From positions 2,651 through 66,650 of the forward strand of contig CAMATZ010000034.1 of NCBI GenBank assembly GCA_945861275.1: 64,000 nucleotides of DNA. The letters are read 5' to 3'. The stretch's first letter is position 1. Each line of letters starts with the position of its first letter. Both the position numbers and the translations under genes were made by a program. This stretch comes from Bordetella parapertussis. Its GTDB lineage: Bacteria; Pseudomonadota; Gammaproteobacteria; Burkholderiales; SG8-41. The notes under the pieces were generated by a model. It was not told the DNA's origin. It made no database searches and was given only the letters and a program-made list of their open reading frames with translations. Positions 18,870-63,793 of the stretch are shown in pieces.

Positions 18870-18901
18870 GTACAGCAGAAACACAAAGGGTGGCCTTTGG
18901 G

Positions 18902-20944: not shown

Positions 20945-20960
20945 TCGCCGGAGGCGAACA

Positions 20961-23762: not shown

Positions 23763-23772
23763 GGTCAAAATC

Positions 23773-23882: not shown

Positions 23883-23911
23883 TTTTGAACTTGGTTTCAG
23901 GAGAAGATGCT

Positions 23912-33107: not shown

Positions 33108-33122
33108 TTGTTTTTAAACATG

Positions 33123-35613: not shown

Positions 35614-35623
35614 CGTGGTTTCC

Positions 35624-35926: not shown

Positions 35927-35935
35927 AACCTGTTC

Positions 35936-36787: not shown

Positions 36788-36794
36788 ACGACTA

Positions 36795-37496: not shown

Positions 37497-37497
37497 A

Positions 37498-41014: not shown

Positions 41015-41045
41015 CAGCTCGGACCTTAGGGTGAAATAGCCGCGC

Positions 41046-41085
41046 ATAAAAAGGGGGCCGTGTAACTCCTCACAGCCCCCTTTTA
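41046..41085 (-). terminator. Intra-operon terminator/attenuator hairpin after urtA
   Basis: The minus strand reads AAAAGGGGGC-N16-GCCCCCTTTTT. A second hairpin, GGCGGCGGAG-N7-CTCCGCCGC (41090..41115), precedes it. Confidence 0.5.
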
Positions 41086-41144
41086 ATGCGCGGCGGAGAA
41101 ACGCGCTCCGCCGCCGGCATTACACGTGCAGTCTCTGTTTTATT

Positions 41145-47709: not shown

Positions 47710-48318
47710 CTAAATCTTCCCGCGCCGCTTCAACCGGCTCAGCGTTTCCGGTGACAAATTCAAATAAGATGCCAGTTCTTTTTTGGGCAGTCGCGCGACC
47801 AGCTCAGCGTGTTTACGCATAAAGCGCTGCACCCGTCCCGGCGCATTCAAGAGATGCAAGGTGATGGTGTGTGCCATGACTTCGCTCATCAGCTTCATCA
47901 CTTCAAGCTCGAACTCGCCCTTGAGTTTGGCATGCCGCTCTAGAAACGCCGCCCACTGCAGCATCGACAGCTTGGCTGCACGCACTTTGGTGACTGCGCG
48001 GATCGAGTAGGGCATCGGCATTTTCAGCCGCCACGCGGCGTAGCTGGTGTCGATGTCGCTTTCTGCGGCAAAGCGCAAAATCATTTCTTTGCCTTGCGCA
48101 TTGGAAACTGCCCGTTTCAAAATGCCGTCGATGACGAAATATTGCTCCATCGCGTGCGTGCCCTGGAGTTCCAGTGTTTCGCCCTTCGCATAGTCGATAA
48201 TTTCCAGCAACGGCTCGAATTCGTTCCATTGCGCGACGCCAAGGTTGGTCAGCACCAGGTTTTGCCGCAATTGCAGGCGTATGATTTTGGACTGGGGGTG
48301 CAGCGCAAGCTGGGTCAT
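47710..48318 (-). CDS. Crp/Fnr-family transcriptional regulator (cNMP-binding-like domain + C-terminal HTH)
   Basis: 202 aa. ...FVIDGILKR... beta-roll region and C-terminal ...KELASYLNLSPETLSRLKRR helix-turn-helix. No N-terminal Cys cluster, so it is not a canonical Fe-S Fnr. Confidence 0.8.
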   Translation of the reverse strand: MTQLALHPQSKIIRLQLRQNLVLTNLGVAQWNEFEPLLEIIDYAKGETLELQGTHAMEQYFVIDGILKRAVSNAQGKEMILRFAAESDIDTSYAAWRLKMPMPYSIRAVTKVRAAKLSMLQWAAFLERHAKLKGEFELEVMKLMSEVMAHTITLHLLNAPGRVQRFMRKHAELVARLPKKELASYLNLSPETLSRLKRRGKI

Positions 48319-48600: not shown

Positions 48601-49872
48601 ATGGAAGCATTAAAAGGTGTTCGAATCCTGGACATGACGCACGTGCAGGCGGGCCCGACCTGCTCGCAGTTGCTGGCGTGGATGGGCGCGGACGTGATCA
48701 AGTTCGAGCCGCCGCAGGGCGACGCCACGCGCGGCCAGCTGCGCGATGTGCCGAACGCCGACAGTCTTTATTTCACCATGTTGAATTGCAACAAGCGTTC
48801 GATCACAGTGAACATGAAGCACCCGGAAGGCAAAAAAGTTTTCATCGATTTGCTGATGCAGTGCGACATCATCATGGAAAACTTTGGTCCCGGCGTGCTC
48901 GATCGCTTTGGCTTCACCTGGGAAAAAATCCACGAACTTAACCCGAAGATCGTGATGGGATCGATCAAGGGTTTCGGTTCCAGCGGCCCGTATTCGGATT
49001 TTAAAGCCTACGAAAACGTGGCGCAGGCGATGGGTGGCTCGATGAGCACCACCGGCGTGCCCGAAGGCCCGCCGTTTGTCACCGGCGCGCAGATTGGCGA
49101 CTCCGGCACGGGTTTGCATCTGGCAATCGGACTATTGGCGGCGCTTCATCAGGCTAACCGTACTGGCCAGGGTCAATACGTCGAAGTGGCGATGATGGAC
49201 GGGGTAATGAATCTGTGCCGCGTGAAATGGCGCGATCATCAGCGGCTCAAGCACCAGTCGTTGTCCGAGTATTCGGTGCCTACGGCGCAGGGTATGGATG
49301 ACGTGCCGCGCGCGGGCAATGATTCCGGCGGCGGGCAGTTGGGCAACGCCATTCATTGCAAGCCGGGCGGCCCCAACGATTACATCTATGTGGTGGTGCA
49401 GGAAGCGGTATGGGACGGCCTCGCGAAACGCATCGGTCCCGACGTGGGTTTGCACGATCTGGCGACAGACGCGCGCTTCGCCAGGATCGGCGACCGGCGC
49501 AAAAATCAGCAGGCGATGTGGACGCTGATCACAAAGTTTGCGTCGAACTACAGCAAGCGCGAATTCATGGCGATACTCAATCCTCTGGATGTGCCTTGCG
49601 GGCCGATTATGTCCACTGAAGACCTGGCGACCGACGAGCATGTGCGCGGCCGCGACATGTACGTCGAACTCGATCATCCGCAGCGCGGCAAGTGGTGGAA
49701 CGTCGGCATGCCGATCAAGTTGTCGGCGTCACCGGCGGTTATCAAGCGCTCGCCCACGCTGGGCGAGCATACTGATGAAGTTTTGAAACAGGTGCTGGGC
49801 TACGCGGACGACAAGGTTGCTCAGTTGAAGGCGGCAGGCGCATTTTCGTTGCCGCCGAAGAAAACTGCGTAG
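48601..49872 (+). CDS. frc: Formyl-CoA:oxalate CoA-transferase
   Basis: ATG 48601 after GGAGAA. MEALKGVRILDMTHVQAGPTCSQLLAWMGADVIKFEPPQGDATRG... is a class III CoA-transferase, Frc-type. Confidence 0.9.
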   Translation: MEALKGVRILDMTHVQAGPTCSQLLAWMGADVIKFEPPQGDATRGQLRDVPNADSLYFTMLNCNKRSITVNMKHPEGKKVFIDLLMQCDIIMENFGPGVLDRFGFTWEKIHELNPKIVMGSIKGFGSSGPYSDFKAYENVAQAMGGSMSTTGVPEGPPFVTGAQIGDSGTGLHLAIGLLAALHQANRTGQGQYVEVAMMDGVMNLCRVKWRDHQRLKHQSLSEYSVPTAQGMDDVPRAGNDSGGGQLGNAIHCKPGGPNDYIYVVVQEAVWDGLAKRIGPDVGLHDLATDARFARIGDRRKNQQAMWTLITKFASNYSKREFMAILNPLDVPCGPIMSTEDLATDEHVRGRDMYVELDHPQRGKWWNVGMPIKLSASPAVIKRSPTLGEHTDEVLKQVLGYADDKVAQLKAAGAFSLPPKKTA

Positions 49873-49989: not shown

Positions 49990-50922
49990 ATGAAAATTGC
50001 AATCATTGGGCAGCAGGATTTTGGCAAAGCAGTGCTGGATGCTTTTCTCGCGCGCGGTGATGAGGTCGCCGGCGTGTTCTGCGCACCCGAAAAACCGGGC
50101 GCCAGGCCCGACCCCGTGCGCGCTGCTGCCGAGGAAAAAAAGCTCAAAGTGTTCCAGTTTAAATCGCTGCGCGAGCCGGATGCGCACGCTGCGCTGAAAA
50201 GCCTGAGTGTGGACATCGGCATCATGGCCTATGTGCTGCAATTCGCGCCGGATACGTTTGTGCATCTGCCGCGTCTGGGCACGATTCAATATCACCCGTC
50301 GCTGCTGCCAAAATACCGCGGGCCATCGTCGATCAACTGGCCGATCATGCGCGGCGACACGCAAACCGGATTAACCGTTTTTCGTCCGAATGAAGGTCTG
50401 GACGAAGGCCCGGTGGTGCTGCAAAAAGCATGCGCGATAGGCCCCGATGACACACTGGGCGATGTCTATTTCAACCATCTTTTTCCGCTGGGCGTAAAAG
50501 CCATGCTCGAAGCCGCCGATCTGGTGTATGCGGGCAAACACAGCGAGACCGTGCAGGACGAGTCGAAGGCGAGCTACGAGGGCTGGTGCCGCGCGGGTGA
50601 GTCGCGTATCCATTGGGCCAGCCATGTGGATTCCGTCTACAACCTGATTCGCGGCTGCAACCCCGCGCCCGGTGCGTGGACCATGCTTAATGGCAAAAAA
50701 GTGCAGATCTTCGATGCGCGCAAGCATCAGTCCCGCCGTTTTGCGGATGTCGCCGGGAAAATGGGCGAGATTTCCGCGATGGGTGAGCAAAGTTTTCGTG
50801 TCACCACTCAGGGCGGCACGATAGAAGTACTGCGCGCGCGCGGTGAAGATGGCAAAAAGCTGTCCGGTGGAGAGTTTGCCAAAGCGAATAATATTGCGAA
50901 CGGCATGGTGTTCGATACCTGA
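49990..50922 (+). CDS. Formyltransferase-fold protein resembling the N-terminal hydrolase domain of 10-formyl-THF dehydrogenase
   Basis: MKIAIIGQQDFGKAVL..., IQYHPSLLPKYRGPSSINWPIMRGD (formyltransferase active-site region), ...SYEGW...IHW...NLIRGCNPAPGAWT (C-terminal Fmt-like domain). Confidence 0.75.
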   Translation: MKIAIIGQQDFGKAVLDAFLARGDEVAGVFCAPEKPGARPDPVRAAAEEKKLKVFQFKSLREPDAHAALKSLSVDIGIMAYVLQFAPDTFVHLPRLGTIQYHPSLLPKYRGPSSINWPIMRGDTQTGLTVFRPNEGLDEGPVVLQKACAIGPDDTLGDVYFNHLFPLGVKAMLEAADLVYAGKHSETVQDESKASYEGWCRAGESRIHWASHVDSVYNLIRGCNPAPGAWTMLNGKKVQIFDARKHQSRRFADVAGKMGEISAMGEQSFRVTTQGGTIEVLRARGEDGKKLSGGEFAKANNIANGMVFDT

Positions 50923-50953
50923 GCGAGTGGCTTTTTGGCGTTGCCCGCTGCCA

Positions 50954-50979
50954 GGGCCGTGGATTCCACGGCCCTTTTT
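50954..50979 (+). terminator. Rho-independent terminator
   Basis: GGGCCGTGG-ATT-CCACGGCCC followed by TTTTT. Confidence 0.7.
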
Positions 50980-51215: not shown

Positions 51216-53753
51216 ATGAAAAAATCCGGGTTTTGGAAGGCTGACTGGTTTCTGGGCGTCGTAGTGACGCTTTTGGTGCTGGCGACCGTCAGTAGCGACT
51301 TGGTGCAAAGTCTGGAGCGCAAGGCCTACGACCTTGGCGTGAAGGCGACATCGCGCACGCCGTCCGACAAAATCGCGGTCATTGCCATAGACAAACAAAG
51401 CATCGACAACATCGGGCGCTGGCCATGGCCGCGCGAGGTGCACGCGCGCATGACGGATATTCTGTCCGCGGCGCGTGCCAAGGTCATTTCGAATAACGCT
51501 TTTTTCTTCGAGCCGCAAATCGATCCCGGCCTCACCTACATCAACAAATTGCTGGCGCTCTACAACAGTAATGCACCGGGCGCCGCGCCTAACGCGGAAC
51601 TTGAACGCTTCGGCGCTGTGTTGCGCGAAGCCGAAACCGCGCTCAACGCCGACCGCAAGCTTGCGGCAAGCTTTGCCAAGGCCGGCAACGTGTTGCTGCC
51701 TTTTGTGTTTGAGCAGTTTGCCGATCCGCTGGGCAATCCCGACAAGCCCCTGCCCAAATATGCCAGCGACCAAAGCGTGCCCGCGGCGCCGCGTTTGACG
51801 CATGGCATGAATCCGACGTTTCCGGTGGCTGAGCTTGCCGCCGCCGCGAACGGCATGGGCCACCTGAATACGCTGGTGGATGTGGATGGCGCGGTGCGTA
51901 CCGAAGCGCTGCTGGTGCGTTACTACGATCGTGCTTTTCCGTCGCTGCCGGTGATGGTTGCCGCGCGCAGCCTGAATTTGCAACTCTCCGACATCAAGCT
52001 TGGCGACGAAGCCCTGCAAGTGGGCCGCCTCAGGATACGCACCGACGACAGTCTGCGCATGAACACGTTTTTCTATTCCGGGAAGGATGGCGCGCCGGCG
52101 TTCCCGGTGGATTCGTTTTTTGATGTCTTGATGGGCAAGATTCCGGCGTCGAAATATCAGGACAAAATCGTATTGATCGGCCCTACCGCTGCGGGGTTGG
52201 GCACCACGCAAGTCACGCCGGTGTCACCGGCTACGCCGCCGGTGCTGACCATGGCGCACACGGTGTCGAGCATTTTGGGCGAGCATTTTTTCGTCGCGCC
52301 GGCGTGGGGCCTGTGGGTGGAACGCGCGGTGCTGCTGGCGGTGGCGCTGTATCTGATACTGGCGCTGCCGCGGCTCAATGCGCGCATGGGCGCGGTCGCC
52401 ACGATGACCTTGCTGATCGTGTTGGTGGCGACGCACTTCGTGCTGATGATGACACAGCTCATGTGGCTGCAATTGATGGCGGCGGTGACCTTGCTGCTGT
52501 TTGGCCACGCCGCACTGGTGACTAAACGATTTATTGTTACCGAGCGCGGCAAGGAAAAGGCGGATGTCGAGTCCGCCGAATCGAATCGCATGCTGGGCCT
52601 TGCGTTTCAGGGCCAAGGGCAGCTCGACATGGCGTTTGATAAATTTCGCAAGCTCGCTGTAGACGACAGCGTGATGGAAATTCTCTACAACCTCGCGCTG
52701 GATTTCGAACGCAAGCGCCAGTTTAACAAGGCGGAATCGGTTTTCAGCTATATGAATGCGTACAACCCGAAATTCCGTGATCTCGAACAGCGCCTGTCGC
52801 GCGCAAGAAACATGGCGGAAACCGTGATACTCGGTGGCGCCGGTCAGAGTCATCCCGGCGGTACCATGGCGCTGGCGGGTAGCGGCATGGAAAAGCCGAT
52901 GCTGGGCCGTTATCAGGTGGAGAAGGAGCTCGGCAAGGGCGCGATGGGCGTGGTGTACCTCGGCAAAGACCCCAAGATCGGGCGCGTGGTGGCGATCAAA
53001 ACGATGGCTTTGTCACAGGAGTTTGAAGCCGACGAACTGGTTGAAGTGAAAGAACGATTCTTCCGCGAAGCCGAAACGGCGGGCCGGCTCACCCACCCGA
53101 ATATCGTAACCATGTACGATGCCGGCGACGAGCACGATCTGGCTTTTATTGCGATGGAGTTTCTCAAGGGCCGCGATTTGATGGCCTACACCAAGCCGGA
53201 CAACCTGTTGCCTCTCGGCACCACGCTTTCCATTGTCGCGCGGGTGGCCGAGGCGCTCGGCTATGCCCACAAGAACAACGTGGTGCATCGCGACATCAAG
53301 CCCGCCAACGTCATGTATGATCCTGAATCCGACAGCGTAAAGGTCACGGATTTTGGCATTGCGCGGATTACCGATTCGTCAAAAACCAAAACCGGCATGG
53401 TATTGGGAACGCCGTCGTACATGTCGCCCGAACAGCTGTCGGGCAAAAAGGTCGAAGGGCATTCGGATATGTTTTCGCTTGGGGTGACGCTCTACCAGCT
53501 TGCCAGCGGTCATTTGCCGTTTACCGGGGACTCCATGGCGCAGCTCATGTTCCGCATTGCCAATGAAGCGCACGTAGATATCCGTCAGCACAACGCGAGC
53601 CTCCCGGCCTGCGTCGCAGCGATTGCCAACAAGGCCCTTGCCAAAGAACCCGAACAGCGCTATCAAAGCTGTGACCAAATGGCCAAGGCGCTGCGTTTGT
53701 GCCTGAGTAGCCTGAAGGGCATGCCCAAACCCGCCTCGGAAACGGCGCGCTAA
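51216..53753 (+). CDS. CHASE2-sensor, membrane-anchored Hanks-type Ser/Thr protein kinase
   Basis: ATG 51216 (MKKSGFWKADW...). The CHASE2 hallmark is IAVIAIDKQSIDNIGRWPWPREVHA. TM segments and a TPR-like stretch follow, then the kinase (GKGAMGVVYLGKD...VAIK, HRDIKPANV, DFGIAR, GTPSYMSPE). Confidence 0.85.
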   Translation: MKKSGFWKADWFLGVVVTLLVLATVSSDLVQSLERKAYDLGVKATSRTPSDKIAVIAIDKQSIDNIGRWPWPREVHARMTDILSAARAKVISNNAFFFEPQIDPGLTYINKLLALYNSNAPGAAPNAELERFGAVLREAETALNADRKLAASFAKAGNVLLPFVFEQFADPLGNPDKPLPKYASDQSVPAAPRLTHGMNPTFPVAELAAAANGMGHLNTLVDVDGAVRTEALLVRYYDRAFPSLPVMVAARSLNLQLSDIKLGDEALQVGRLRIRTDDSLRMNTFFYSGKDGAPAFPVDSFFDVLMGKIPASKYQDKIVLIGPTAAGLGTTQVTPVSPATPPVLTMAHTVSSILGEHFFVAPAWGLWVERAVLLAVALYLILALPRLNARMGAVATMTLLIVLVATHFVLMMTQLMWLQLMAAVTLLLFGHAALVTKRFIVTERGKEKADVESAESNRMLGLAFQGQGQLDMAFDKFRKLAVDDSVMEILYNLALDFERKRQFNKAESVFSYMNAYNPKFRDLEQRLSRARNMAETVILGGAGQSHPGGTMALAGSGMEKPMLGRYQVEKELGKGAMGVVYLGKDPKIGRVVAIKTMALSQEFEADELVEVKERFFREAETAGRLTHPNIVTMYDAGDEHDLAFIAMEFLKGRDLMAYTKPDNLLPLGTTLSIVARVAEALGYAHKNNVVHRDIKPANVMYDPESDSVKVTDFGIARITDSSKTKTGMVLGTPSYMSPEQLSGKKVEGHSDMFSLGVTLYQLASGHLPFTGDSMAQLMFRIANEAHVDIRQHNASLPACVAAIANKALAKEPEQRYQSCDQMAKALRLCLSSLKGMPKPASETAR

Positions 53754-53762
53754 GAGCCAACG

Positions 53763-54578
53763 ATGACCATGGCAAGCAAGCAATTCGATATGGCCAGTGC
53801 AACCGACGTGGGACGGGTGCGCGCGCACAATGAAGACAGTATTGCGGCGGATGTGGATCTCGGACTGGCGACGCTGGCCGATGGCATGGGCGGCTACAAT
53901 GCCGGCGAGGTGGCGAGCGGCATCGCGGTGGCGATGGTGCCGCAGGAAATGCGCAAGCTTTCCGCCGCCCAGGCCTTGCACGGACTGAACGATGAAGCGG
54001 TGCAACAATTGATGGCCGCGCAGGCCTCCAAAGTGAATAGCGCGATTTATACTGCTGCGCAAAGCCAAACGCAGTATACCGGCATGGGTACCACGCTGGT
54101 CATCGCGTATTGGCATGGTGACCGCGTGACGGTGGCCCATTTGGGAGATTCGCGTTGTTATCGCGTGCGCGGCGCCGCGGTGACGCCGCTCACCCGCGAC
54201 CACTCGTGGATACAGGAACAAATCGACGCCGGTTTGATGACCTACGAACAGGCGCGCACCTCCAAGAAAAAAAATCTGGTCACGCGCGCCTGCGGCATTG
54301 ATCTGAATGTGGCGCCCGAAGTTCACACCCACACAGTGGAGGCGGGTGATATTTACGTGTTGTGTTCCGACGGCCTCTACGACATGGTGCCAGACGAGGA
54401 TATACAGTTGACGGTGTCGTCGCTGAAATCCAACCTGACGCTGGCGGCGCAGCAACTGGTGCAGCAGGCCAACGACAATGGCGGGCGCGACAATATTTCA
54501 GTGATACTGGTGCATGTGCTCAAGGTGGCTCAGGCGCCGGCAGGTTTAATCGCGCGTTTGAAAAATTGGTTTAAATAA
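53763..54578 (+). CDS. PP2C-family Ser/Thr protein phosphatase
   Basis: DVGRVRAHNEDS, LADGMGGYNAGEVAS, GTTLV, LCSDGL, DNISVILV. Confidence 0.9.
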   Translation: MTMASKQFDMASATDVGRVRAHNEDSIAADVDLGLATLADGMGGYNAGEVASGIAVAMVPQEMRKLSAAQALHGLNDEAVQQLMAAQASKVNSAIYTAAQSQTQYTGMGTTLVIAYWHGDRVTVAHLGDSRCYRVRGAAVTPLTRDHSWIQEQIDAGLMTYEQARTSKKKNLVTRACGIDLNVAPEVHTHTVEAGDIYVLCSDGLYDMVPDEDIQLTVSSLKSNLTLAAQQLVQQANDNGGRDNISVILVHVLKVAQAPAGLIARLKNWFK

Positions 54579-54594
54579 GTGCGGGGAAATAATC

Positions 54595-55365
54595 ATGGCT
54601 AAGGTGATACTCAGTCTTGAAGGCTCGGTGATTCGGGAAATGAGCCTGGACAAGGAGCGCGTGACAATCGGGCGCAAGCCGCAGAACGACATTCAGATCG
54701 AGAATCTGGCAGTCAGCAGCGAGCACGCGCGCATCGTGACCATATTGAACGATTCGTTTCTGGAGGATTAGGGTTCCACCAACGGCACTATGGTCAACGG
54801 CAACCCGATCAAAAAGCACATTCTGCAGAATAACGACGTTATCGAAATCGGCAAATACACGCTCAATTTCGTGAGCGACGCGCCGGTGGCGAGTCAGGCC
54901 TCGGCCGAAGACTTCGAGCGCACCATGGTGTTGCGTGCACCGCCCGCGGCCCAGCGTGCGCCTGCTGCGCCTGCCCCTGCAGTGGAACTCAATGCCTTAA
55001 CCGCGCCGCTACCCAAAGTGACTCTGGCGAAGCCTGCAGCGGCAGCGCCCGGCGCCGCCGCGCCCGCACAGAAAGCGGCAGCGGCGCCGGCTGCCGCAGC
55101 GCAAGCGTGGATACAGATCATGAGCGGTCCGGGTGTTGGCAAAGAGGCGCCTTTAATCAAAAATCTCACCACGCTGGGCAAGCCCGGCGTGCAAGTCGCG
55201 GTGATCGCCAGACGACCGCAGGGTTACTTCATTACACATGTGGAGGGGACGAATTACCCGGTGTTAAACAATAAGAAACTGGACACCCAGGCGCATCTTC
55301 TGGGCGATCATGATCTGATCGAAATCGCCGGGGTAAAAATGGAGTTTTTCTTCAGGCAGTCGTGA
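54595..55365 (+). pseudogene. Double-FHA-domain protein gene interrupted by an in-frame TAG (54769..54771)
   Basis: Own translation from ATG 54595: MAKVILSLEGSVIREMSLDKERVTIGRKPQNDIQIENLAVSSEHARIVTILNDSFLED*GSTNGTMVNGNPIKKHILQNNDVIEIGKYTL.... The stop replaces the Leu of the FHA motif LEDLGSTNGT (TTG to TAG is one change). The same frame continues into ORF 54790..55365, which carries an Ala/Pro linker and a second FHA-like domain. Confidence 0.6.
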
Positions 55366-55446
55366 GGGCGCCACACGTATTCGTCCGCGGCTGCGCCAGG
55401 CATCGCGCGCGCAAGCTGACGTCCGCATTTTAAGCAAAGCATCAAC

Positions 55447-57669
55447 ATGAAAAAACATTGGCTGCGGATTATCATGGGGCTGGGTATCGTCGCGGCGTTC
55501 TTTGTTCATGCACGCGGCGTGGATTATGAGCTGCTGTTCATCAGCAAGCTCGAGAACCTGGCGTCCGACACGCGCTTGCGCTTTCTCATGCCGGGCGGCG
55601 TCGATCCGAAAATTGTCATACTCGATATCGATGAGAAAAGTCTCAAGGAAAGAGAACAAGGCGGCGAAGGGCGCTGGCCGTGGCCGCGCGATCGGCTCGC
55701 ACTGATGATCGACAAGCTGTTTGACAAGTACCAGATCGAGGTGCTGGGCTTTGACGTGGTGTTTGCCGAGCGTGATGAAACGTCGGGCGTCAGGGTGCTC
55801 GACCGGCTCGCAAACAAGGAGTTGAGCGGCGTGCCGCAGTTTCAGAACGCACTCACCAGGTTGCGTCCGCAGTTGGACTACGATGCCATATTCGCCGACA
55901 AGCTGCGCAATCGCAAGGTGGTGCTTGGCTATACCTTCAATCAGGAGCGCGAATTCAAAGGCTTGCTGCCGGCGCCGGTGTTTACCGAGGCGGAGCTTCG
56001 CGGGCGCAAGATCCCGCAAGAGGAGGTCCGGTTAGGCTATAGCGGCAACATAGAAGTCCTGCAAAAAAGCGCGGCAAGCGGCGGACATTTCAATCCAACG
56101 AATGATGCCGATGGCGTGCTGCGCAAGGTGCCTTTGGTGATTCCTTTCCAGGGCAAATATTACGAAGCGCTTTCGCTGGCGGTGGTGCGCAGCTATTTGG
56201 GCATGCCTCCGGTCAAGTTCGAATTCGAGGACTATGCCGGCGGCGATGTGGCGCTCGAGGAAATCTCCATCGGCGGGTTGAAGATTCCCGTGGACAATAA
56301 GGCGCGGGCTTTGATTCCCTATCGCGGTCCGCGTGACAGTTTCAAATACATTTCAATCTCCGATGTGATGAATGACCGTGTTGATATTGCTGAACTGCGC
56401 GGCAAGATAGCGCTGGTCGGCACCTCGGCGCCGGGGTTGCTCGATTTGCGCGTGACGCCGGTAGATGCGGTGTATCCGGGAGTGGAGGCGCACGCCAATC
56501 TCGTCGCCGGCATGCTGGACGAGAAACTAAAGCGCGATCCGGCGTATGCGAGCGGCGCGCAATTGATGGCCATCGTCCTGATCGGTTTGGTGCTGGCGGT
56601 GCTGTTGCCGTTCTTGAGTATTGTCCATGCAACCGTGGTGATCCTCTCCGTTGCGGGGTTGGTGATTGGCGTCAATCTCGCTTTGTACCATCATGCGAAT
56701 TTTGTGTTGCCGCTGGCCGGCAATGTGTTGCTGATATTCGCGCTCTACACGCTGAACACGGTGTGGGGCTATTTCACCGAATCGCGCAGCAAGAGGCTGA
56801 TTACCGCGCAGTTCGGGCAATATATACCGCCGGAAATCGCCGAACAAATAGCGAAAGACCCCAGTACGGTGTCTTTTGAACCAGCCTCGCGCGAGTGTAC
56901 GGTGCTGTTTACCGACGTGCGCGGATTTACCACCATCTCGGAAGGGCTGGATCCCAAGGCGCTGTCGGAACTCATGAATGAGTTCCTGACACCGCTCACC
57001 GAGGTGATCTTCAAGCATCACGGCACGATTGATAAATACATGGGGGATTGCATCATGGCGTTCTGGGGCGCGCCCCTTGCCAACGCCGCGCATGCGCAAA
57101 CGGGGGTGCTTGCGGGACTCGAAATGCATCGTGTACTCAATGAATTACAGCCGAAGTTCAAGGCTAAAAACTGGCCTGAAATCAAGATCGGCGTGGGCCT
57201 GAATACCGGCCGCATGAGTGTGGGTAACATGGGATCGACGATCCGGCGTGCCTACACGGTGATGGGTGATGCGGTAAATCTGGCGTCGCGTCTTGAAGGC
57301 ATCACCAAGGAATACGGCGCTGATGTTATCGTGGGCGAAGACACCATGGCGGCGTCGCCGGATATGGTTTTCCGTGAATTGGACAAGGTGCGCGTCAAAG
57401 GCAAGGAAAACGCGGTCACAATATATCAGCCGATCGGGCTGCGCAGCGAGGTCAGCGCTGACATCATCAAGCGGCTGGAAGTTTATCAGGAGGCGTTGGA
57501 CACGTATCGCAGGCAGGACTGGGATAAGGCCGAGACGCTGTTGCGGCAATTGCAGGAATCCTCGCCGGGAAACAAGCTCTACGAGTTGTTTCTGGCGCGC
57601 ATACCGGTGCTGCGCGAGAAGGATCTGGGTCCCGATTGGGACGGCGCGTTTACATTCGAGACGAAATAA
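55447..57669 (+). CDS. CHASE2-sensor class III adenylate/guanylate cyclase
   Basis: CHASE2 (IVILDIDEKSLKE...GRWPWPRDRLA), TM segments, a cyclase domain (VLFTDVRGFTTISE, GDCIMAFWGAP, GDAVNLASRLE) and a C-terminal TPR-like tail. Confidence 0.85.
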   Translation: MKKHWLRIIMGLGIVAAFFVHARGVDYELLFISKLENLASDTRLRFLMPGGVDPKIVILDIDEKSLKEREQGGEGRWPWPRDRLALMIDKLFDKYQIEVLGFDVVFAERDETSGVRVLDRLANKELSGVPQFQNALTRLRPQLDYDAIFADKLRNRKVVLGYTFNQEREFKGLLPAPVFTEAELRGRKIPQEEVRLGYSGNIEVLQKSAASGGHFNPTNDADGVLRKVPLVIPFQGKYYEALSLAVVRSYLGMPPVKFEFEDYAGGDVALEEISIGGLKIPVDNKARALIPYRGPRDSFKYISISDVMNDRVDIAELRGKIALVGTSAPGLLDLRVTPVDAVYPGVEAHANLVAGMLDEKLKRDPAYASGAQLMAIVLIGLVLAVLLPFLSIVHATVVILSVAGLVIGVNLALYHHANFVLPLAGNVLLIFALYTLNTVWGYFTESRSKRLITAQFGQYIPPEIAEQIAKDPSTVSFEPASRECTVLFTDVRGFTTISEGLDPKALSELMNEFLTPLTEVIFKHHGTIDKYMGDCIMAFWGAPLANAAHAQTGVLAGLEMHRVLNELQPKFKAKNWPEIKIGVGLNTGRMSVGNMGSTIRRAYTVMGDAVNLASRLEGITKEYGADVIVGEDTMAASPDMVFRELDKVRVKGKENAVTIYQPIGLRSEVSADIIKRLEVYQEALDTYRRQDWDKAETLLRQLQESSPGNKLYELFLARIPVLREKDLGPDWDGAFTFETK

Positions 57670-57671
57670 CG

Positions 57672-58436
57672 ATGCGGCTTGAAATCATCGGTTGCAGCGG
57701 TGGTATCGGTGGCGATCTGCGCACGACCTCGCTGCTGCTCGACCATGATGTGCTGATAGACGCTGGCACCGGCGTCGGTGATCTCAGCATCGGGCAGATG
57801 GCGCAGATCGACCATGTTTTTGTGACGCACTCGCATCTGGATCATGTGACATCGATTCCGTTTATGGTTGATACCGTAGGCGCGTTGCGTAGCAAGCCGC
57901 TAACGGTTCACGCGTTGCCGGAGACCATTGCGGATTTGCGGCAGCATCTGTTTAACTGGAAGTTGTGGCCGGACTTTACGCAAATTCCTTCGCCACAACA
58001 GCCTGCGCTGCGGTTTTCGCCGGTTGCGCTCGGGCAAGGCCTCGAGATTTCAGGACGGACGATAACGCCGGTTCCGGCGTACCATATTGTGCCGGCGGTG
58101 GGATATGCACTGGATTCGGGCAAGGCAAGCCTGGTATTTACCGGCGATACCTGCAGTTGCGATGATTTGTGGCGCGTAGTGAATACTATCGGTAATCTTC
58201 GTTATATCATTGTCGAAACGGCGTTTCCCGACGCCGAGCGGGAACTGGCGCTACGGGCCAGGCATTTGTGTCCCAGCCTGTTGTTTGAACAGTTGGCCTT
58301 ATTGAGAAAAGATGCGGAAATTTTTATTACACACCTTAAGCCGGGCGAAGACGTGAAAATCATGCAGGAGATCGCGCGCGGCGCGTCACGCTGGAATCCG
58401 AGAATGCTGCAACATCGGCAGGTTTTCGAGTTCTAG
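57672..58436 (+). CDS. Class II 3',5'-cyclic-nucleotide phosphodiesterase (metallo-beta-lactamase fold)
   Basis: ATG 57672, 3 nt after the cyclase stop. MRLEIIGCSGGIGG... and THSHLDHV (HxHLDH signature). Confidence 0.75.
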   Translation: MRLEIIGCSGGIGGDLRTTSLLLDHDVLIDAGTGVGDLSIGQMAQIDHVFVTHSHLDHVTSIPFMVDTVGALRSKPLTVHALPETIADLRQHLFNWKLWPDFTQIPSPQQPALRFSPVALGQGLEISGRTITPVPAYHIVPAVGYALDSGKASLVFTGDTCSCDDLWRVVNTIGNLRYIIVETAFPDAERELALRARHLCPSLLFEQLALLRKDAEIFITHLKPGEDVKIMQEIARGASRWNPRMLQHRQVFEF

Positions 58437-58481
58437 ACGGGATGGACTTGTGTTGAATAAAATCATTGTGGTGGGGGTGAA

Positions 58482-60857
58482 ATGAGTTCAGTACTCCAAA
58501 GCAAACCAGCAGCGCAGGATCCTCTGGCGGAAAAGCTCGGGTTCCAGCAGCGGCTGCAAGCGGTGACAAACAAGGTTCATGGCGCAAAGGACATCGATGA
58601 GATCCTCACCGATGTTTCGATCGAGCTTTGCGCCTTGTTTCTGGCGGATCGGCTCACGATATACCTGACCAGCGAGGACAAGGGCTCGATTATTTCCAAG
58701 GTCAAGACCGGACTGAATTCCTTCAAGGACATCAAGCTTCCCATCAACGAACAGTCGGTTGCCGGGTTTGTAGGGGTCAACAAGCGTGTGCTTAACATTC
58801 GCGACGTCTACGATGCCGCTGAACTCAAGGTGCACAGCCCGAAATTGAATTTTCTGAAGGCGGTTGACGCGAAAACGGGCTACCGCACGCGGCAGATGCT
58901 GGTGGCGCCGATAGTGGAAGCCAAGACCAACGATCTGATCGGTATCATTCAGATTATCAACACCAAGAGCGGGCAGCCCTTTCCGCAGTACATGGAAGAA
59001 GGCGTTTTGCATCTGTGCGAAACCATGGCTATTGCGTTCCGGCAACGTCAGGGCGCGAGCGGCCGCATACAGGTGCGCGGCAAGTACGACGCGCTGGTGA
59101 CCGATGCGGTGATTTCCGCGGACGAGATCGAACTCGCGCAACGCTCATCACGGCGCAAGAATATTGATCTGGAAACGGTGCTGATCGACGAGTTCCAGGT
59201 CAAAGTGCCGGTGCTCGGCGCCGCGCTGGCGGCGTATTTTGGCGTTGCCTACGAACCCTTCAAGCAGGACCGCATCAAGCCGCCCGATCTGCTGCGCAAC
59301 ATGAGCCGCGAGTTTTGTCTGACCAATCAGTGGGTGCCTGTGGAGGACTCCAAGGACGGCATTGTGGTGGTGACGCCGGATGTGGAGCGCACGCGTACTT
59401 CGCGCATGGTTGCCAACGTTTACCCGAAGAACAAAATTGTCTATCGCGTGACGACGCAGCGTGAATTTATTGCCACGCTGGATCAGTTGTTTGGCGCCTC
59501 GATGTCGGATTCCGGCAACATTGACGACCTGCTCGGTGATCTTGACGACGAAGAAAGCCTGGAAGCCGGCGGCGACGACATCGCGAGCGCCGCCAGCGAC
59601 AACGAACTCGTCAAGCTGGTGAACAAGGTCATTATCGACGCCTATCAGCAGGGGGCATCGGATATTCATATCGAACCCTATCCGGGCAAAGGCAAGACGG
59701 AAATCCGCTTTCGCAAGGACGGCTCGCTGACCCCCTATATACAGATCCCCGCGAGTTACCGTAACGCGCTCGCAGCGCGGCTCAAGATCATGTGTGATCT
59801 GGATATTTCGGAACGCCGCAAGCCGCAGGATGGCAAGATCAAATTCAAAAAATTCGGGCCGCTGGATATTGAATTGCGGGTCGCCACCATTCCGACGGCA
59901 GGCGGTGTTGAAGACATCGTGATGCGTATTCTGGCGGCCGGCGAACCGATCCCGCTGGATAAGCTGGGGCTTTCGAAGCGCAATCAAGAGCAGTGCAAGA
60001 TCGCTATTGAAAAGCCGTACGGACTGTTTTTCGTGTGCGGCCCGACCGGTTCGGGCAAAACCACCACGCTGCATTCCGTGCTCGGCTATCTGAACAAGCC
60101 CGACACTAAAATCTGGACCGCCGAAGACCCGGTTGAAATTACCCAGAAAGGCCTGCGCCAGGTTCAAATCAACAAAAAAGCGGGACTGGAATTTTCCATC
60201 ATTATGAAGGCATTTTTGCGCGCCGATCCCGACATCATCATGGTCGGCGAGATGCGCGACAAGGAGACCGTGTCCATCGGCATCGAGGCGTCGCTAACGG
60301 GTCACCTGGTGTTTGCAACACTGCATACGAATAGCGCGCCGGAATCGATTATCCGTTTGCTGGATATGGGCATGGACCCGTTTAACTTCGCCGACGCGCT
60401 GTTGGGCATACTGGCGCAGCGTCTGGCCAAGCGCCTGTGCGCGAAGTGCAAGCAAGCGCGTGCGGCGACCGATGAAGAAGTGCAAATGCTGCTCGAAGAA
60501 TACGCCCTTGAGCTGATGAACACCGAGTCGTGGAAAAAAGACCCGCAAGGCGAGCGCGCGAAACTGCTGGCATTCTGGGTCAAGGAGTTCGGCGATAAGA
60601 ATGGCGGTCTCACGCTGCATTCGGCAAAGGGCTGCGATACCTGCAGCGACTCGGGGTACAAGGGGCGCGTGGGATTGCACGAATTGCTGATCGCTACCGA
60701 CCGCGTGAAAAAAGATATTCAGGAGCACGCCCGCGTGTCGCAAATGTTTGCAACCGCGCTCGAAGAAGGCATGCGCACGCTGAAGCAGGACGGCATAGAA
60801 AAAGTGTTGCAGGGCATCACCGATATGCAGCAGGTGCGTGCTGTGTGCATCAAGTAA
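58482..60857 (+). CDS. GAF-domain-fused PilB/GspE-family secretion/pilus-assembly ATPase
   Basis: N-terminal GAF-like ~190 aa (...LFLADRLTIYL...VAGFVGVNKRVLNIRDVY...MLVAPI...LIGIIQIIN), then a T2SSE_N-like region. The ATPase core has GPTGSGKTT, IMVGEMRD and GHLVFATLHTN, plus a C-terminal CAKC...CDTC tetracysteine. Confidence 0.85.
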   Translation: MSSVLQSKPAAQDPLAEKLGFQQRLQAVTNKVHGAKDIDEILTDVSIELCALFLADRLTIYLTSEDKGSIISKVKTGLNSFKDIKLPINEQSVAGFVGVNKRVLNIRDVYDAAELKVHSPKLNFLKAVDAKTGYRTRQMLVAPIVEAKTNDLIGIIQIINTKSGQPFPQYMEEGVLHLCETMAIAFRQRQGASGRIQVRGKYDALVTDAVISADEIELAQRSSRRKNIDLETVLIDEFQVKVPVLGAALAAYFGVAYEPFKQDRIKPPDLLRNMSREFCLTNQWVPVEDSKDGIVVVTPDVERTRTSRMVANVYPKNKIVYRVTTQREFIATLDQLFGASMSDSGNIDDLLGDLDDEESLEAGGDDIASAASDNELVKLVNKVIIDAYQQGASDIHIEPYPGKGKTEIRFRKDGSLTPYIQIPASYRNALAARLKIMCDLDISERRKPQDGKIKFKKFGPLDIELRVATIPTAGGVEDIVMRILAAGEPIPLDKLGLSKRNQEQCKIAIEKPYGLFFVCGPTGSGKTTTLHSVLGYLNKPDTKIWTAEDPVEITQKGLRQVQINKKAGLEFSIIMKAFLRADPDIIMVGEMRDKETVSIGIEASLTGHLVFATLHTNSAPESIIRLLDMGMDPFNFADALLGILAQRLAKRLCAKCKQARAATDEEVQMLLEEYALELMNTESWKKDPQGERAKLLAFWVKEFGDKNGGLTLHSAKGCDTCSDSGYKGRVGLHELLIATDRVKKDIQEHARVSQMFATALEEGMRTLKQDGIEKVLQGITDMQQVRAVCIK

Positions 60858-60873
60858 GCGGGATAACGCAAGC

Positions 60874-62493
60874 ATGAACCAAAGCATGCAGGCGCCGGAT
60901 CACGCAGAGCTTACCGACCGCTTCGAACAACTCCTGGGCATTGGTATTGCGCTGTCGCGCGAGCGCGATATCAACAAGCTGCTCGAGGCCATCTTGCTGG
61001 CCGCGAAGGACGTCACCAGCGCGGATGGTGGCACTCTGTACCGTATGTCCGACGACAATATGCTTAAGTTCGATATTGTGCGCAACGATACTCTGGGTAT
61101 CGCGATGGGCGGGACTACCGGCGTCGAGATTCCGTTTTATCCAATTCAATTGTTTACTGACGAGGGCGTGCCCAATCTGCACATGGTGGCGGCGTATGCC
61201 GTCCACAAGGACTGCTCGGTCAATATCGTGGACGCCTACACCGAGATGGGTTTCGATTTCAGCGGCATGAAAGCGTTCGACACCAAGACCGGTTACCGTT
61301 CGCAGTCTTTTCTGACGGTGCCGATGAAGAACCATGAAAACGAAATCATCGGCGTGCTGCAGCTGATCAACGCCAAAGACCCTAACAGCGAAAAAGTGCA
61401 GCCGTTCTCCGCGGTGGATCAACGGCTGGCGGAATCGCTGGCCTCGCAGGCTGCGATTGCGCTAACCAATCGCCTGCTGATTAATCATCTGGAAGCGCTG
61501 TTTGAGTCGTTTATCAGTCTCATCAATACCGCGATAGACGATAAATCACCGTATACCGGCGGGCACTGCAATCGCGTGCCCGAGCTCACCATGATGTTGG
61601 CCGAAGCGGTGACCAAATCCAACGTCGGCCCGCTCAAGAATTTTACCATGACCGAGCGCGACCGCTATGAATTGCGCATCGCGGGTCTGTTGCACGATTG
61701 CGGCAAGATCACCACACCGGTGCATGTGGTGGACAAAGCGACCAAGCTGGAAACGATATACGACAGGATCAATTTGCTGGATACCCGCTTTGAAGTCGTC
61801 AAGCGCGACCTGCGGATTGCCGTCTTGAGCGGGCAGTTGAGCGCGGCAGAACTCGAAGCAAAATACAAGTCGATAGACGAGGATCGCGCCTTCCTGCGCC
61901 ACACCAATATCGGCGGTGAATTCATGCGCGACGAGGACGTGGAACGTGTCAAGCACATTGCAAGCGCATACCGCTGGATGGATCCGGCGGGAAACGAATG
62001 CAATTTTCTTTCCGATGACGAAGTAAAAAATCTCACCATACGCGCGGGCACACTGACGATGGAAGAGCGCACCGTCATCAACCACCATATCGATGTCACC
62101 ATCAAGATGCTGGAAGCGCTGCCCTGGCCTAAGCACCTCACCGGCGTGCCCGAATACGCAGGCGGCCATCACGAGCGTATGGACGGCAAAGGCTACCCGC
62201 GCGGCCTGACGCGCGCGCAAATGTCGGTGCAGGCGCGTTGCATGGGCATCGCTGACATTTTCGAGGCGCTGACCGCCAAAGACCGGCCCTACAAAAAGGG
62301 TAAAACGCTCACCGAATCGCTCAATATCCTGGGGAAAATGAAGCTGGGGCAGCATGTAGACCCGGATTTATTTGATATTTTCATGTGGGAGAGGGTGTAC
62401 GAGGCTTACGCGCTGCAATATATGTCCCCGGACCAAATTGATCATGTGGATTTGAGCAAGGTGCCGGGTTACGTGCCGCCGCCCGTGGCTTGA
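60874..62493 (+). CDS. GAF + HD-GYP domain protein (probable c-di-GMP phosphodiesterase)
   Basis: ATG 60874. The GAF region is ...DGGTLYRM...FLTVPM...IGVLQLINAK. The HD-GYP motifs are HDCGKI and GGHHERMDGKGYPRGL. Confidence 0.85.
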   Translation: MNQSMQAPDHAELTDRFEQLLGIGIALSRERDINKLLEAILLAAKDVTSADGGTLYRMSDDNMLKFDIVRNDTLGIAMGGTTGVEIPFYPIQLFTDEGVPNLHMVAAYAVHKDCSVNIVDAYTEMGFDFSGMKAFDTKTGYRSQSFLTVPMKNHENEIIGVLQLINAKDPNSEKVQPFSAVDQRLAESLASQAAIALTNRLLINHLEALFESFISLINTAIDDKSPYTGGHCNRVPELTMMLAEAVTKSNVGPLKNFTMTERDRYELRIAGLLHDCGKITTPVHVVDKATKLETIYDRINLLDTRFEVVKRDLRIAVLSGQLSAAELEAKYKSIDEDRAFLRHTNIGGEFMRDEDVERVKHIASAYRWMDPAGNECNFLSDDEVKNLTIRAGTLTMEERTVINHHIDVTIKMLEALPWPKHLTGVPEYAGGHHERMDGKGYPRGLTRAQMSVQARCMGIADIFEALTAKDRPYKKGKTLTESLNILGKMKLGQHVDPDLFDIFMWERVYEAYALQYMSPDQIDHVDLSKVPGYVPPPVA

Positions 62494-62732: not shown

Positions 62733-62748
62733 TGGCATTAGAATTGCT
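62733..62748 (+). promoter_or_regulatory. Sigma-54 promoter of pilin gene 1
   Basis: TGGCATTAGAATTGCT matches TGGCAY-N5-TTGCW. It lies about 60 nt upstream of the ATG. Confidence 0.75.
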
Positions 62749-62810: not shown

Positions 62811-63251
62811 ATGAAACGCGTGCAAAAAGGTTTTACCTTGATAGAACTGATGATAGTGGTCGCGATTATTGGCATTCTGGCGGCGATTGCGATCCCTCAA
62901 TATGGTGATTACACGTCGCGCACCCGGGCGGCCGGATCGGCAGCGGAAATTGCGTCTACCCGGAGCGCTATCGGTGTTTGTGGCAGCGATCTTGCCACGC
63001 TTACCGGTTGCAATGCCGGCACAAACGCCATTCCCACAATATCTGTCACAAAAAATATTACGGTTGTAACCTCTGTGACTAACGGCGTGATTCGGGTTAC
63101 TACTGGCGCAACGACTACCGCTGGTGTAAACCTTACAACGATAGACACACCGACACTGCCTGCTGCTGGCGCCAATATGCTGTGGACGAACACAGGCACA
63201 GTTTGCAATGCGACGCGAGGCTTCAAATCAGGTGCTGGTGATTGCCCATAA
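62811..63251 (+). CDS. Type IV (IVa) major pilin, copy 1
   Basis: MKRVQKG|[24 protein letters not shown] is a class III signal peptide. Two Cys pairs are present, including a C-terminal C-X12-C disulfide loop ([15 protein letters not shown]). Confidence 0.9.
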
Positions 63252-63259
63252 CACAGGAT

Positions 63260-63275
63260 TGGCATTGTTATTGCT
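63260..63275 (+). promoter_or_regulatory. Sigma-54 promoter of pilin gene 2
   Basis: TGGCATTGTTATTGCT. Confidence 0.75.
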
Positions 63276-63328: not shown

Positions 63329-63769
63329 ATGAAACGTACACAACAAGGTTTTACCCTGATCGAACTGATGATCGTGGTGGCAATTATCGGTATTCTGGCG
63401 GCCATCGCGATCCCTCAATATGGTGATTACACCTCACGCTCCCGGGCAGCCGGTTCGGCGGCGGAAATTGCGTCTTCCCGCGCCGCAATCGGTGTTTGTG
63501 CCAGCGATCTTGGCACGCTTGCCGGTTGTGATGCCGGCACGAACGCCATTCCCACCATAACCACCACGAAAAATATTACGGCGGTAACCTCGGTGACTAA
63601 CGGCGTAATTTCAGTCACAACGGGCGCAACGACTACTGCCGGTGTAAACCTTACAACCATAGACACACCCACAATTCCTGCGGGTGGCGCCAATATGTTG
63701 TGGACGAACACGGGCACGGTTTGCAATGCGACGCGAGGCTTTAAATCAGGTGCTGGTGATTGCCCGTAA
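63329..63769 (+). CDS. Type IV (IVa) major pilin, copy 2
   Basis: 146 aa, about 90% identical to copy 1 ([17 protein letters not shown]...). Confidence 0.9.
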
Positions 63770-63777: not shown

Positions 63778-63793
63778 TGGCATTGCAATTGCT
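63778..63793 (+). promoter_or_regulatory. Sigma-54 promoter of pilin gene 3
   Basis: TGGCATTGCAATTGCT. Confidence 0.75.

Follow-up and report, generated by a model that had tools for sequence, protein, structure and literature searches.

Does a block of seven co-directional genes that brings together enzymes of Ser/Thr phosphorylation, cyclic nucleotide (cNMP) metabolism and cyclic di-GMP (c-di-GMP) turnover with a pilus-type ATPase encode a single signalling circuit? The block lies at 51216–62493 of a 64,000 nt stretch of contig CAMATZ010000034.1 (GenBank assembly GCA_945861275.1), which is referred to here as the window. An earlier note, made from the letters of the window alone, proposed that it does, with a cue sensed outside the cytoplasm by two CHASE2 domains being converted into phospho-Thr and cNMP signals that gate a type IV pilus motor and c-di-GMP turnover. 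The answer reached here is a modified one, in which cyclic AMP (cAMP) would be the hub of the cassette and would be read by GAF domains on both a PilB-like ATPase and an HD-GYP enzyme, with a pilus as the output. We hold this answer tentatively, giving it close to, though not quite, an even chance.

The seven open reading frames (ORFs) were found on the forward strand where the earlier note had placed them, and the coordinates, order and close spacing that it gave were all borne out. The block and the element that precedes it are as follows.

50953–50975, + strand: intrinsic-terminator-like hairpin after an fmt-like gene, 10 bp stem with 8 GC pairs, followed by a T tail.
51216–53753, + strand: CHASE2 domain, transmembrane (TM) segments, TPR-like linker and Hanks-type Ser/Thr kinase, 845 aa.
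53763–54578, + strand: PP2C Ser/Thr phosphatase, 271 aa, 9 nt after the kinase gene.
54595–55365, + strand: FHA gene, interrupted, 257 codons, 16 nt after the PP2C gene.
55447–57669, + strand: CHASE2 domain, TM segments and class III (IIIb-type) adenylate cyclase, 740 aa, 81 nt after the FHA gene.
57672–58436, + strand: metallo-beta-lactamase (MBL)-fold, class II-type phosphodiesterase (PDE), 254 aa, 2 nt after the cyclase gene.
58482–60857, + strand: GAF domain, degenerate MshEN_N-like helices, GSPII/N1 domain and T2SSE ATPase, 791 aa, 45 nt after the PDE gene.
60874–62493, + strand: GAF-HD-GYP phosphodiesterase, 539 aa, 16 nt after the ATPase gene.

The hairpin is a strong predicted terminator and forms the upstream boundary of the cassette, and terminator prediction returned none in any of the intergenic gaps within the block. 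An Rfam scan of 50.8–64 kb found no riboswitch and no other family, the sole match being a sub-threshold terminator-like one, and a scan for sigma-70 promoters recovered no more sites than were present in shuffled sequence; no RNA-seq run was found to contain the region. The seven genes are probably co-transcribed.

The two GAF domains are central to the proposed circuit, and the claim that they are of the cNMP type held when they were compared with solved structures. This comparison was used in place of an AlphaFold model; the model of the N-terminal 338 residues of the ATPase (8-sequence alignment, mean predicted local distance difference test score 54) was unfit for a fold search. The ATPase GAF best matched the GAFs of CyaB2 (1YKD, E=4e-25), which we take to bind cAMP, followed by those of PDE2A (1e-9), PmGH and PDE10A (8e-8). 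For the HD-GYP GAF the best match was the GAF-A region of the cGMP-specific PDE5 (E=7e-19), with CyaB2 (1e-9) and PmGH next, and the two GAFs of the cassette find each other by tblastn at 24–33 % identity. A signature, F..VD..TG[YF][RK]T...L..P...G..Q[LI][IL]N, is kept over an alignment of the whole family of GAF-fused ATPases; its part F..VD..TG[YF][RK]T...L..P is common to cNMP-binding GAFs, is invariant among close relatives and is kept in members as remote as those from Desulfobacterales. No stretch of the domain is more conserved than the signature. Both GAFs thus combine closest similarity to cNMP-binding GAFs with the TG[YF][RK]T and N-x-K motifs, and their assignment to that subgroup is supported at the level of sequence.

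The CHASE2 class III cyclase named in the earlier note was found to have the residues of an adenylate cyclase. The protein contains CHASE2 (Pfam, 5e-53) and Guanylate_cyc (1e-21) domains, and an alternative start at 55474 would give a product of 731 aa. Its catalytic domain best matches Pseudomonas aeruginosa CyaB (3R5G, E=1e-36, 129.8 bits) among PDB sequences, the top matches all being adenylate cyclases, and the segments FTDVRGFT, IDKYMGDC and YTVMGDAVNLASRLE align with 3R5G column for column. The hallmarks of class IIIb cyclases are two metal-binding Asp residues, a Lys and Thr pair, and the transition-state Asn and Arg. Here, the substrate-defining positions are taken up by a Lys (K..GD) and a Thr (YTVMGD), which we take to be the class IIIb adenylate cyclase pattern (with Asp in IIIa). 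Because of this pair, and because CyaB is the best match, the product is most likely cAMP. The two CHASE2 proteins of the block are approximately 25 % identical to one another.

The gene immediately after that of the cyclase encodes an MBL-fold protein with the THSHLDH signature of class II cNMP phosphodiesterases. It scores 52.9 bits with Pfam PDEase_II (PF02112), for which the gathering cut-off is 23.7, also matches Lactamase_B_2, and can be aligned with yeast PDE1 (4OJV, E=6e-7). At the far end of the block, the second GAF protein includes HD (7e-10) and HD_5 (7e-40) domains as well as the Pfam GAF domain, and its motifs, HD (LLHDCGK) and GYP (HHERMDGKGYPRG; HHERMDGKGYP), are intact. An insertion of approximately 80 aa lies between the HD and GYP motifs, and insertions of this type have been described for GAF-linked HD-GYPs. 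Judged by its motifs, this protein is predicted to be a c-di-GMP phosphodiesterase.

The remaining GAF protein is an ATPase of the PilB/GspE superfamily (Pfam T2SSE 2.7e-116, MshEN/GSPII 3e-10), and includes a GSPII/MshEN-type N1 domain that the earlier note had omitted. It has the core features of a PilB protein, namely N1 and N2 domains, the T2SSE domain, a Walker A motif (GPTGSGKT, residue 520) and a tetracysteine site (CAKC at 653 and CDTC at 718). From residue ~200 onwards it aligns almost end to end with residues 8–557 of Myxococcus xanthus PilB (3JC8, E=3e-105), other extension ATPases and then GspE being the next structural relatives, and the best NCBIfam model is that for PilB (TIGR02538). 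A role as a type IV pilus motor is plausible. Approximately 38 aa between the Cys pairs of the zinc site (residues ~667–705, positions 60440–60560) are unmatched in M. xanthus PilB.

Extension ATPases can be regulated by c-di-GMP bound to an N-terminal MshEN domain, for which the motif is a tandem of the 24-residue RLGxx(L/V/I)(L/V/I)xxG(L/V/I)(L/V/I)xxxxLxxxLxxQ (PMC5013675). Neither a strict nor a relaxed form of this motif was found anywhere in the ATPase protein. In the helices that correspond to it the sequence is KYDALVTDAVIS... and DLETVLIDEFQV..., with Lys-Tyr-Asp and Asp-Leu-Glu at the sites where Arg-Leu-Gly is required, and this divergence is shared by the entire family of GAF-fused ATPases. 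Binding of c-di-GMP through MshEN was rejected on the absence of the motif.

The earlier note had suggested gene-neighbourhood analysis as a check of the circuit, and the gene order was found to recur in 79 species-level loci. A scan of one genome per species identified 229 species with a relative of the GAF–N1 region of the ATPase, and the best 80 loci, of which 79 were distinct, were examined by domain-level tblastn, with a gene scored only where the contig reaches its position. Nearly all of these 80 loci are from metagenome-assembled genomes and none is from a named cultured species; the carriers of the block are uncultured Betaproteobacteria/Burkholderiales from freshwater and groundwater. 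Homologues of the ATPase itself number in the thousands, the top 120 being 76–97 % identical, and the few with an organism name come from uncultured Betaproteobacteria or Burkholderiales. For several carriers (among loci L002, L003, L009, L033, L038, L043, L046 and L061) the label in the record is Bordetella parapertussis, Bordetella sp., Streptomycetaceae or Methyloceanibacter, which is evidently the wrong taxon.

The PP2C gene lies beside the ATPase gene in all 53 covered loci, and the FHA N-terminal domain (56/58) and C-terminal domain (59/61), the cyclase (69/71) and the HD-GYP protein (55/57) are almost as constant. The kinase was found in 43 of 51 loci and the PDE in 52 of 77. Where all positions are covered (35 loci), the seven genes are all present in 19, the PDE alone is missing in nine and the kinase alone in three. 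Two loci, L006 and L071, in which the ATPase GAF is ~84 % and ~72 % identical to that in the window, jointly lack the cyclase and the HD-GYP protein and keep PP2C, FHA, PDE and ATPase, with a pilin gene no more than ~1.1 kb past the ATPase stop codon. Of all the partners, PP2C and FHA accompany the ATPase most consistently.

To look beyond this clade, the N-terminal 345 residues of the ATPase were compared with 1.84 billion representative sequences, and 196 clusters (50 % identity) were retrieved at E<=1e-30. They include full-length GAF-fused ATPases with 29–44 % identity, for example from Giesbergeria (Comamonadaceae) and Desulfobacterales, and members of this family bear generic database names only. 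The gene contexts found for distant members were as follows.

L085 and L086 (Giesbergeria-like): PDE orthologue (47 % identity) 4 nt upstream of the GAF-ATPase gene, and no other cassette genes.
L090: related MBL gene 19 nt upstream of the GAF-ATPase gene.
Five other lineages: GAF-ATPase gene an orphan among unrelated housekeeping genes.

The Giesbergeria-like ATPase shares 41 % N-terminal identity with that in the window, and the pairing of PDE with ATPase is the sole link within the cassette that survives over such a distance, which points to a cyclic nucleotide as the signal for the ATPase. As a whole, the cassette is a later development peculiar to a single clade of Betaproteobacteria. In the L092 lineage, two small genes for PilZ-domain proteins (7494–8351) lie on the opposite strand just downstream of an orphan GAF-ATPase gene, and hint at a c-di-GMP link of another kind.

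Taken as one system, the block might operate as follows. The CHASE2 receptor cyclase would make cAMP on a signal from outside the cytoplasm, and the adjoining MBL-fold PDE would remove it, resetting the signal. The cAMP would be bound by the two paralogous cNMP-type GAFs. That on the ATPase would gate a PilB-like hexameric enzyme, occupying the regulatory place of the c-di-GMP-binding MshEN of MshE/PilB, and that on the HD-GYP protein would activate it and so lower c-di-GMP, by analogy with Tlr0485. The ATPase would most likely power a type IV filament, the subunits being the sigma-54-driven pilins whose genes usually follow the block directly. The CHASE2 kinase, PP2C phosphatase and FHA protein would add a second, post-translational switch, acting on the same output through Thr phosphorylation, by analogy with PpkA/PppA/Fha1. 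What has been observed comprises the genes, their motifs, their joint conservation and the classes to which the GAF and cyclase domains belong by sequence; the ligands, the interactions and the pilus output in this scheme are all what we infer from them. A broader proposal, which we regard as possible but doubtful, is that GAF-fused PilB-like ATPases are a widespread class of motors switched directly by cAMP or cGMP, in which a cNMP-type GAF replaces the MshEN motif and of which the cassette-embedded ATPase described here is one case. Such a class would extend from Burkholderiales to Desulfobacterales, and through the cassette, cues at the envelope would act on pilus dynamics and on the level of c-di-GMP with no transcription factor involved.

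The pilin genes invoked in this scheme, which the earlier note had already reported beside the cassette, are present as three tandem, near-identical type IVa pilin genes.

62733–62748 and 62811–63251, + strand: sigma-54 -24/-12 box and pilin gene 1, 146 aa.
63260–63275 and 63329–63769, + strand: sigma-54 box and pilin gene 2, 146 aa.
63778–63793 and from 63853, + strand: sigma-54 box and pilin gene 3, which runs past the end of the window; it is complete in L082, at 15372–15812.

Each gene follows an exact TGGCAT-N5-TTGCT box, and these three are the only such boxes in the window, where 0.27 would be expected by chance. Given a box for each gene, the pilins are separate transcription units and so stand outside the transcript of the block. 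Among the relatives, a same-strand pilin gene was found within 7 kb downstream in 31 of 48 loci and was adjacent in 16. In L082, the counterpart of the array occupies 14330–15812 and is followed by a gene for a FimB-like membrane protein. Many relatives have one or two genes of 520–616 aa, with the conserved N-terminus MLKNLL..., between the HD-GYP gene and the pilin (for example L022 14406–18132, L033 14531–16096 and L054 14479–19333, the last with a 994 aa membrane protein as well). These may be pilin-modification genes.

A number of findings weigh against the cAMP-centred scheme, and the first concern its ligand. The GAF subgroup to which both domains belong also includes PmGH, a GAF-HD-GYP protein that matches both of them and whose GAF has no known ligand. 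The GAFs might then sense some nucleotide or metabolite other than a cNMP, or serve only for dimerization, with the cyclase and PDE acting through other receptors. That the PDE, and more rarely the cyclase, is lost while the ATPase stays would fit this possibility. We nevertheless consider it quite unlikely, as the GAFs of CyaB2, PDE2A, PDE5 and PDE10A stand at the top of the matches by many orders of magnitude (PtsP, a non-cNMP GAF, reaches 1.7e-4 with the ATPase GAF, as opposed to 4e-25 for CyaB2), conservation within the domain is highest over the signature that it has in common with these cNMP-binding GAFs, and a cyclase and a PDE are encoded in the same block. The assignment of the PDE is likewise tentative. 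Its match to class II enzymes is local, covering profile positions 82–144 of 340, RNase Z-type models score it about as well as class II PDE models do, and the NCBIfam model for cyclic-nucleotide-degrading PDEs gives 34 bits against a cut-off of 400.

The role of the ATPase is also in doubt. The earlier note called it a GAF-PilB/GspE ATPase; the GAF and the PilB-like core stood, and membership of either named family did not, its score of 477.8 bits being below the cut-off for the PilB equivalog (TIGR02538, 675.65) and that of 431.3 bits below the cut-off for GspE (630.25). Genes for a platform protein, a secretin, PilM–P and PilT are absent from the window and from the called-gene tables of L001 and L082, the two closest flanks used for this check. 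The pilins have their own predicted sigma-54 promoters, apart from the transcript of the block, and no pilin gene lies within 7 kb in 17 of the 48 loci. These observations, together with the orphan status of relatives in other phyla, raise the question of whether the ATPase is a pilus motor at all. It could serve another process, related to type II secretion or of a kind not recognized, or be a filament-free, cAMP-regulated NTPase switch, with a canonical PilB encoded elsewhere serving the pilins. Against this, every one of the top structural matches is a type IVa extension ATPase, M. xanthus PilB aligning almost end to end, the best NCBIfam model is PilB, and a pilin gene lies downstream in the 31 loci noted above, and close to the ATPase where the HD-GYP gene has been lost. 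On balance a non-pilus role appears somewhat less probable than the cAMP-controlled motor, and we would call it doubtful.

The third difficulty concerns the gene order. The frc and fmt-like genes upstream, for which a signalling role is not plausible, are retained in 44 of 44 covered loci, so part of the conservation of the block is clade-wide synteny, and synteny alone is no proof of function. About one third of the relatives have no PDE, several have lost the kinase or carry a broken copy, and in the window it is the FHA gene that is broken, from which it follows that parts of the circuit are dispensable, and the more distant GAF-ATPases, including those in other phyla, are orphans beside unrelated genes. 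The block could thus consist of two or three independent modules (an ordinary kinase/PP2C/FHA set with targets elsewhere; cyclase, PDE and HD-GYP; an unrelated orphan ATPase) held side by side by a gene order frozen in one clade. The kinase arm does vary separately, as eight of 51 loci lack it and L002 and L003 have lesions there, and the largest gaps, of 81 nt between FHA and cyclase and of 45 nt before the ATPase, fall at the joints between such modules. However, PP2C and FHA stay with the ATPase in L006 and L071 despite the loss of the cyclase, the HD-GYP protein and the kinase sensor, and the PDE–ATPase pair persists, 4 nt apart, in a lineage where none of the other neighbours is shared. 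The same GAF subtype is found on both effectors, and a terminator precedes the block with none in its intergenic gaps. The joint loss of cyclase and HD-GYP, the retention of PP2C and FHA with the ATPase, and the tight spacing still argue for function, and we regard independent modules as unlikely.

A cyclic-nucleotide anti-phage defence system, in which a Pycsar-like cyclase and effectors would be joined by a kinase of the sort found in PD-T4-6 or MADS, was also considered. PADLOC assigned the kinase to PD-T4-6 and mad6 and the cyclase to PycC (best 103.8 bits), and a weak match of the PDE to the Apyc1 family is on record. The PADLOC matches are confined to generic kinase and class III cyclase domains, with none for the FHA, PDE and HD-GYP proteins, CyaB is the better match for the cyclase (129.8 bits), whose residues are of the purine type, and the cassette has a fixed chromosomal place, flanked in dozens of species by the same housekeeping genes, unlike mobile, patchy defence islands. 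As the matches are at the domain level only, the defence reading was rejected and is highly improbable.

The phospho-Thr arm of the proposed circuit is damaged in the window genome. The kinase (Pfam CHASE2 2e-51, Pkinase 6e-55) has the catalytic motifs VAIK, HRDIKPAN, DFG and SPE, and its gene is uninterrupted in the source population of the window. The phosphatase matches Pfam PP2C and PP2C_2 and scores 236.9 bits with the NCBIfam Stp1/IreP model, above the cut-off of 230. By sequence criteria, both enzymes appear to be catalytically competent. The FHA gene, however, is cut by an in-frame TAG at codon 59 (54769–54771), within the DLGSTNGT motif and ahead of the NG loop, and an intact FHA reader is therefore not encoded in the window genome. 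TAG works as an ordinary stop codon here, as the PDE gene also terminates with TAG.

The TAG is a TTG-to-TAG substitution for which the dominant population in each of two lake-water runs is fixed, the dominant contigs of these independent read sets holding it at ~45x depth with zero mismatches. A contig in ENA that is identical to the window also holds it, and gene callers divide the FHA gene into products of 58 and 191 aa. As the two runs and the identical contig all carry it, the TAG is not a quirk of one assembly. Codon 59 is Leu in a relative with 97 % identity, and 55 of 56 relatives have an uninterrupted FHA ORF with Leu or Met at this position. A minor co-occurring relative has ATG (Met). 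An ATG at 54790, 18 nt past the TAG, opens the 191 aa ORF, and re-initiation there could yield a product that keeps the C-terminal module only. The FHA arm of the window genome is impaired or inactive.

The earlier note described a double-FHA protein, and the gene and its 16 nt spacing from PP2C were confirmed; the ORF is not intact, and the second FHA is a degenerate FHA-like fold. The layout is an N-terminal canonical FHA domain, an Ala/Pro-rich linker and the C-terminal FHA-like domain. Pfam detects only the first (residues 23–86), which matches the FhaB/FipA, OdhI and TagH family models and for which the residues that bind phospho-Thr are encoded (GRK, SSEH and STNGT). The C-terminal module can be related to the N-terminal domain by hhalign (probability 81 %, E=1e-5), though the SxxH loop is deleted and Lys replaces Arg. 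A profile search with this module against PDB sequences returned noise only, so its FHA relationship rests on the hhalign comparison.

Lesions in this arm extend to the closest relatives. The three closest genomes (>=95 % identity over the GAF–N1 region) have three different cassette lesions, one being the FHA nonsense codon of the window genome. In L003, a 1 nt deletion outside a homopolymer at approximately position 3500 (window 52045) divides the CHASE2 kinase gene, though this could be an assembly error. In L002, the kinase has been almost wholly deleted; what is left of the kinase domain is a frameshifted remnant, and of the PDE a fragment (5541–5857 and 9755–10000). The cyclase, ATPase and HD-GYP genes remain intact in the species group with these lesions, which suggests that the phospho-Thr arm is under relaxed selection there. 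Because of the FHA nonsense codon and the kinase lesions in the two closest genomes, the circuit as drawn in the earlier note is not intact in the window genome. What stood of the single circuit are the gene order, the GAF subgroup, the cyclase residues and the distant PDE–ATPase pair.

Elsewhere the window encodes the metabolism of oxalate, formate and urea, with no genes for pilus machinery. A gene for oxalyl-CoA decarboxylase (45846–47582, - strand), the first of three oxalate catabolism genes, is followed by a 202 aa ORF (47710–48318, - strand) with a gene-like GC content at third codon positions and no NCBIfam match at E<=1e-10, then by frc, encoding formyl-CoA transferase (48601–49872), and the fmt-like formyltransferase gene (49990–50922), which scores below the Fmt cut-off. 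The reason for the constant position of the last two upstream of the signalling cassette is not obvious. Genes for C1 and urea metabolism lie at 16706–25585 and 31774–42446. The family scan confirmed a succinate- or malate-CoA ligase beta subunit, a formate dehydrogenase alpha subunit, formate-tetrahydrofolate ligase and urease alpha, and the other urease and accessory genes and a urea/branched-chain-type ABC transporter were assigned from the N-termini of their ORFs only.

The earlier note also stated that wiring of this kind was not known to have been characterized. A literature search for this domain combination or cassette found nothing relevant, and no GAF-fused PilB/GspE-type ATPase was found in the searchable literature, including a 2024 review on PilB regulation. 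Parts of the wiring are, however, published. Tlr0485 from Thermosynechococcus vulcanus is a GAF-HD-GYP c-di-GMP phosphodiesterase activated by cAMP, and other cross-talk from cAMP to c-di-GMP has been described for Lcd1 (cAMP-GAF-GGDEF) and Bd1971 (cNMP-EAL). C-di-GMP regulates PilB/MshE extension ATPases through the N-terminal MshEN, and in P. aeruginosa cAMP controls type IV pili via transcription, through Vfr. CHASE2 Ser/Thr kinases are known in cyanobacteria, and CHASE2 is listed among the partners of HD-GYP domains. Hence, each domain and several of the pairwise links were already known, and the GAF-fused PilB-like ATPase and the cassette appear to be new to the searchable literature.

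Control of pilus extension motors by c-di-GMP is known, either directly via MshEN or through PilZ/FimX, whereas an effect of cAMP on pili is known only via transcription (Vfr, Sycrp1). If the scheme is correct, a motor with its own cAMP/cGMP-type GAF sensor would represent a third, direct mode of control, and the cassette would be a compact natural case of phospho-Thr, cAMP and c-di-GMP converging on one machine. It also gives a handle on CHASE2, a common sensor domain. In practice this is limited by the fact that every full-cassette carrier identified here is uncultured.

The nearest known counterparts of the ATPase are MshE, PilB and PilF (V. cholerae MshE, M. xanthus PilB and C. perfringens PilB2). 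They belong to the same superfamily and have the N1 GSPII domain, N2, Walker A and tetracysteine site in common with it, and the principle of a second-messenger-type N-terminal module on a motor appears to be shared. The ATPase described here differs in that it lacks the tandem c-di-GMP motif and has an additional cNMP-type GAF in front, and, in comparison with PilB, it falls below the equivalog cut-off and lacks a pilBCD-type neighbourhood. The HD-GYP enzyme has the same GAF-HD-GYP architecture as Tlr0485 and PmGH, with intact HD and GYP motifs and a cNMP-subgroup GAF that matches that of PmGH, the likeness to Tlr0485 being by description. Unlike Tlr0485, it shares its block with the cyclase presumed to serve it, with a PDE and with another GAF effector, and it has the insertion of ~80 aa in the HD-GYP domain. 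The closest relatives of both GAFs, in Anabaena CyaB1/CyaB2 and mammalian PDE2/5/10, share the TG[YF][RK]T and N-x-K motifs, but the outputs here are an ATPase and an HD-GYP domain, and a single GAF is present rather than a tandem pair.

The Pil-Chp/CyaB/CpdA/Vfr system of P. aeruginosa shares with the cassette a link between cAMP and pili and a dedicated PDE, and CyaB is the best solved relative of the cyclase. The proposed receptor here is a GAF on the ATPase rather than Vfr, and the input is CHASE2 rather than Chp. CpdA, which we take to be a class III PDE, is unlike the MBL-fold enzyme. For the phospho-Thr arm, the comparison systems are the PpkA kinase, PppA PP2C phosphatase and Fha1 of type VI secretion, and the actinobacterial PknB/PstP/FhaA/FhaB. 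In these, as in the cassette, a membrane Hanks-type kinase with an extracytoplasmic sensor, a PP2C phosphatase and an FHA protein adjoin a secretion-type ATPase machine. The cassette is distinguished from these systems by the CHASE2 sensor, the degenerate second FHA-like domain and the lack of type VI genes, by its combination with cAMP and c-di-GMP enzymes, and by an FHA gene that is a pseudogene or split. Finally, to our knowledge no ligand of CHASE2 is known. Sinorhizobium meliloti CyaD1/CyaD2/CyaK are, we presume, CHASE2 adenylate cyclases, and the cassette differs from the known CHASE2 receptors in that two divergent CHASE2 proteins are encoded in one block together with their likely downstream parts.

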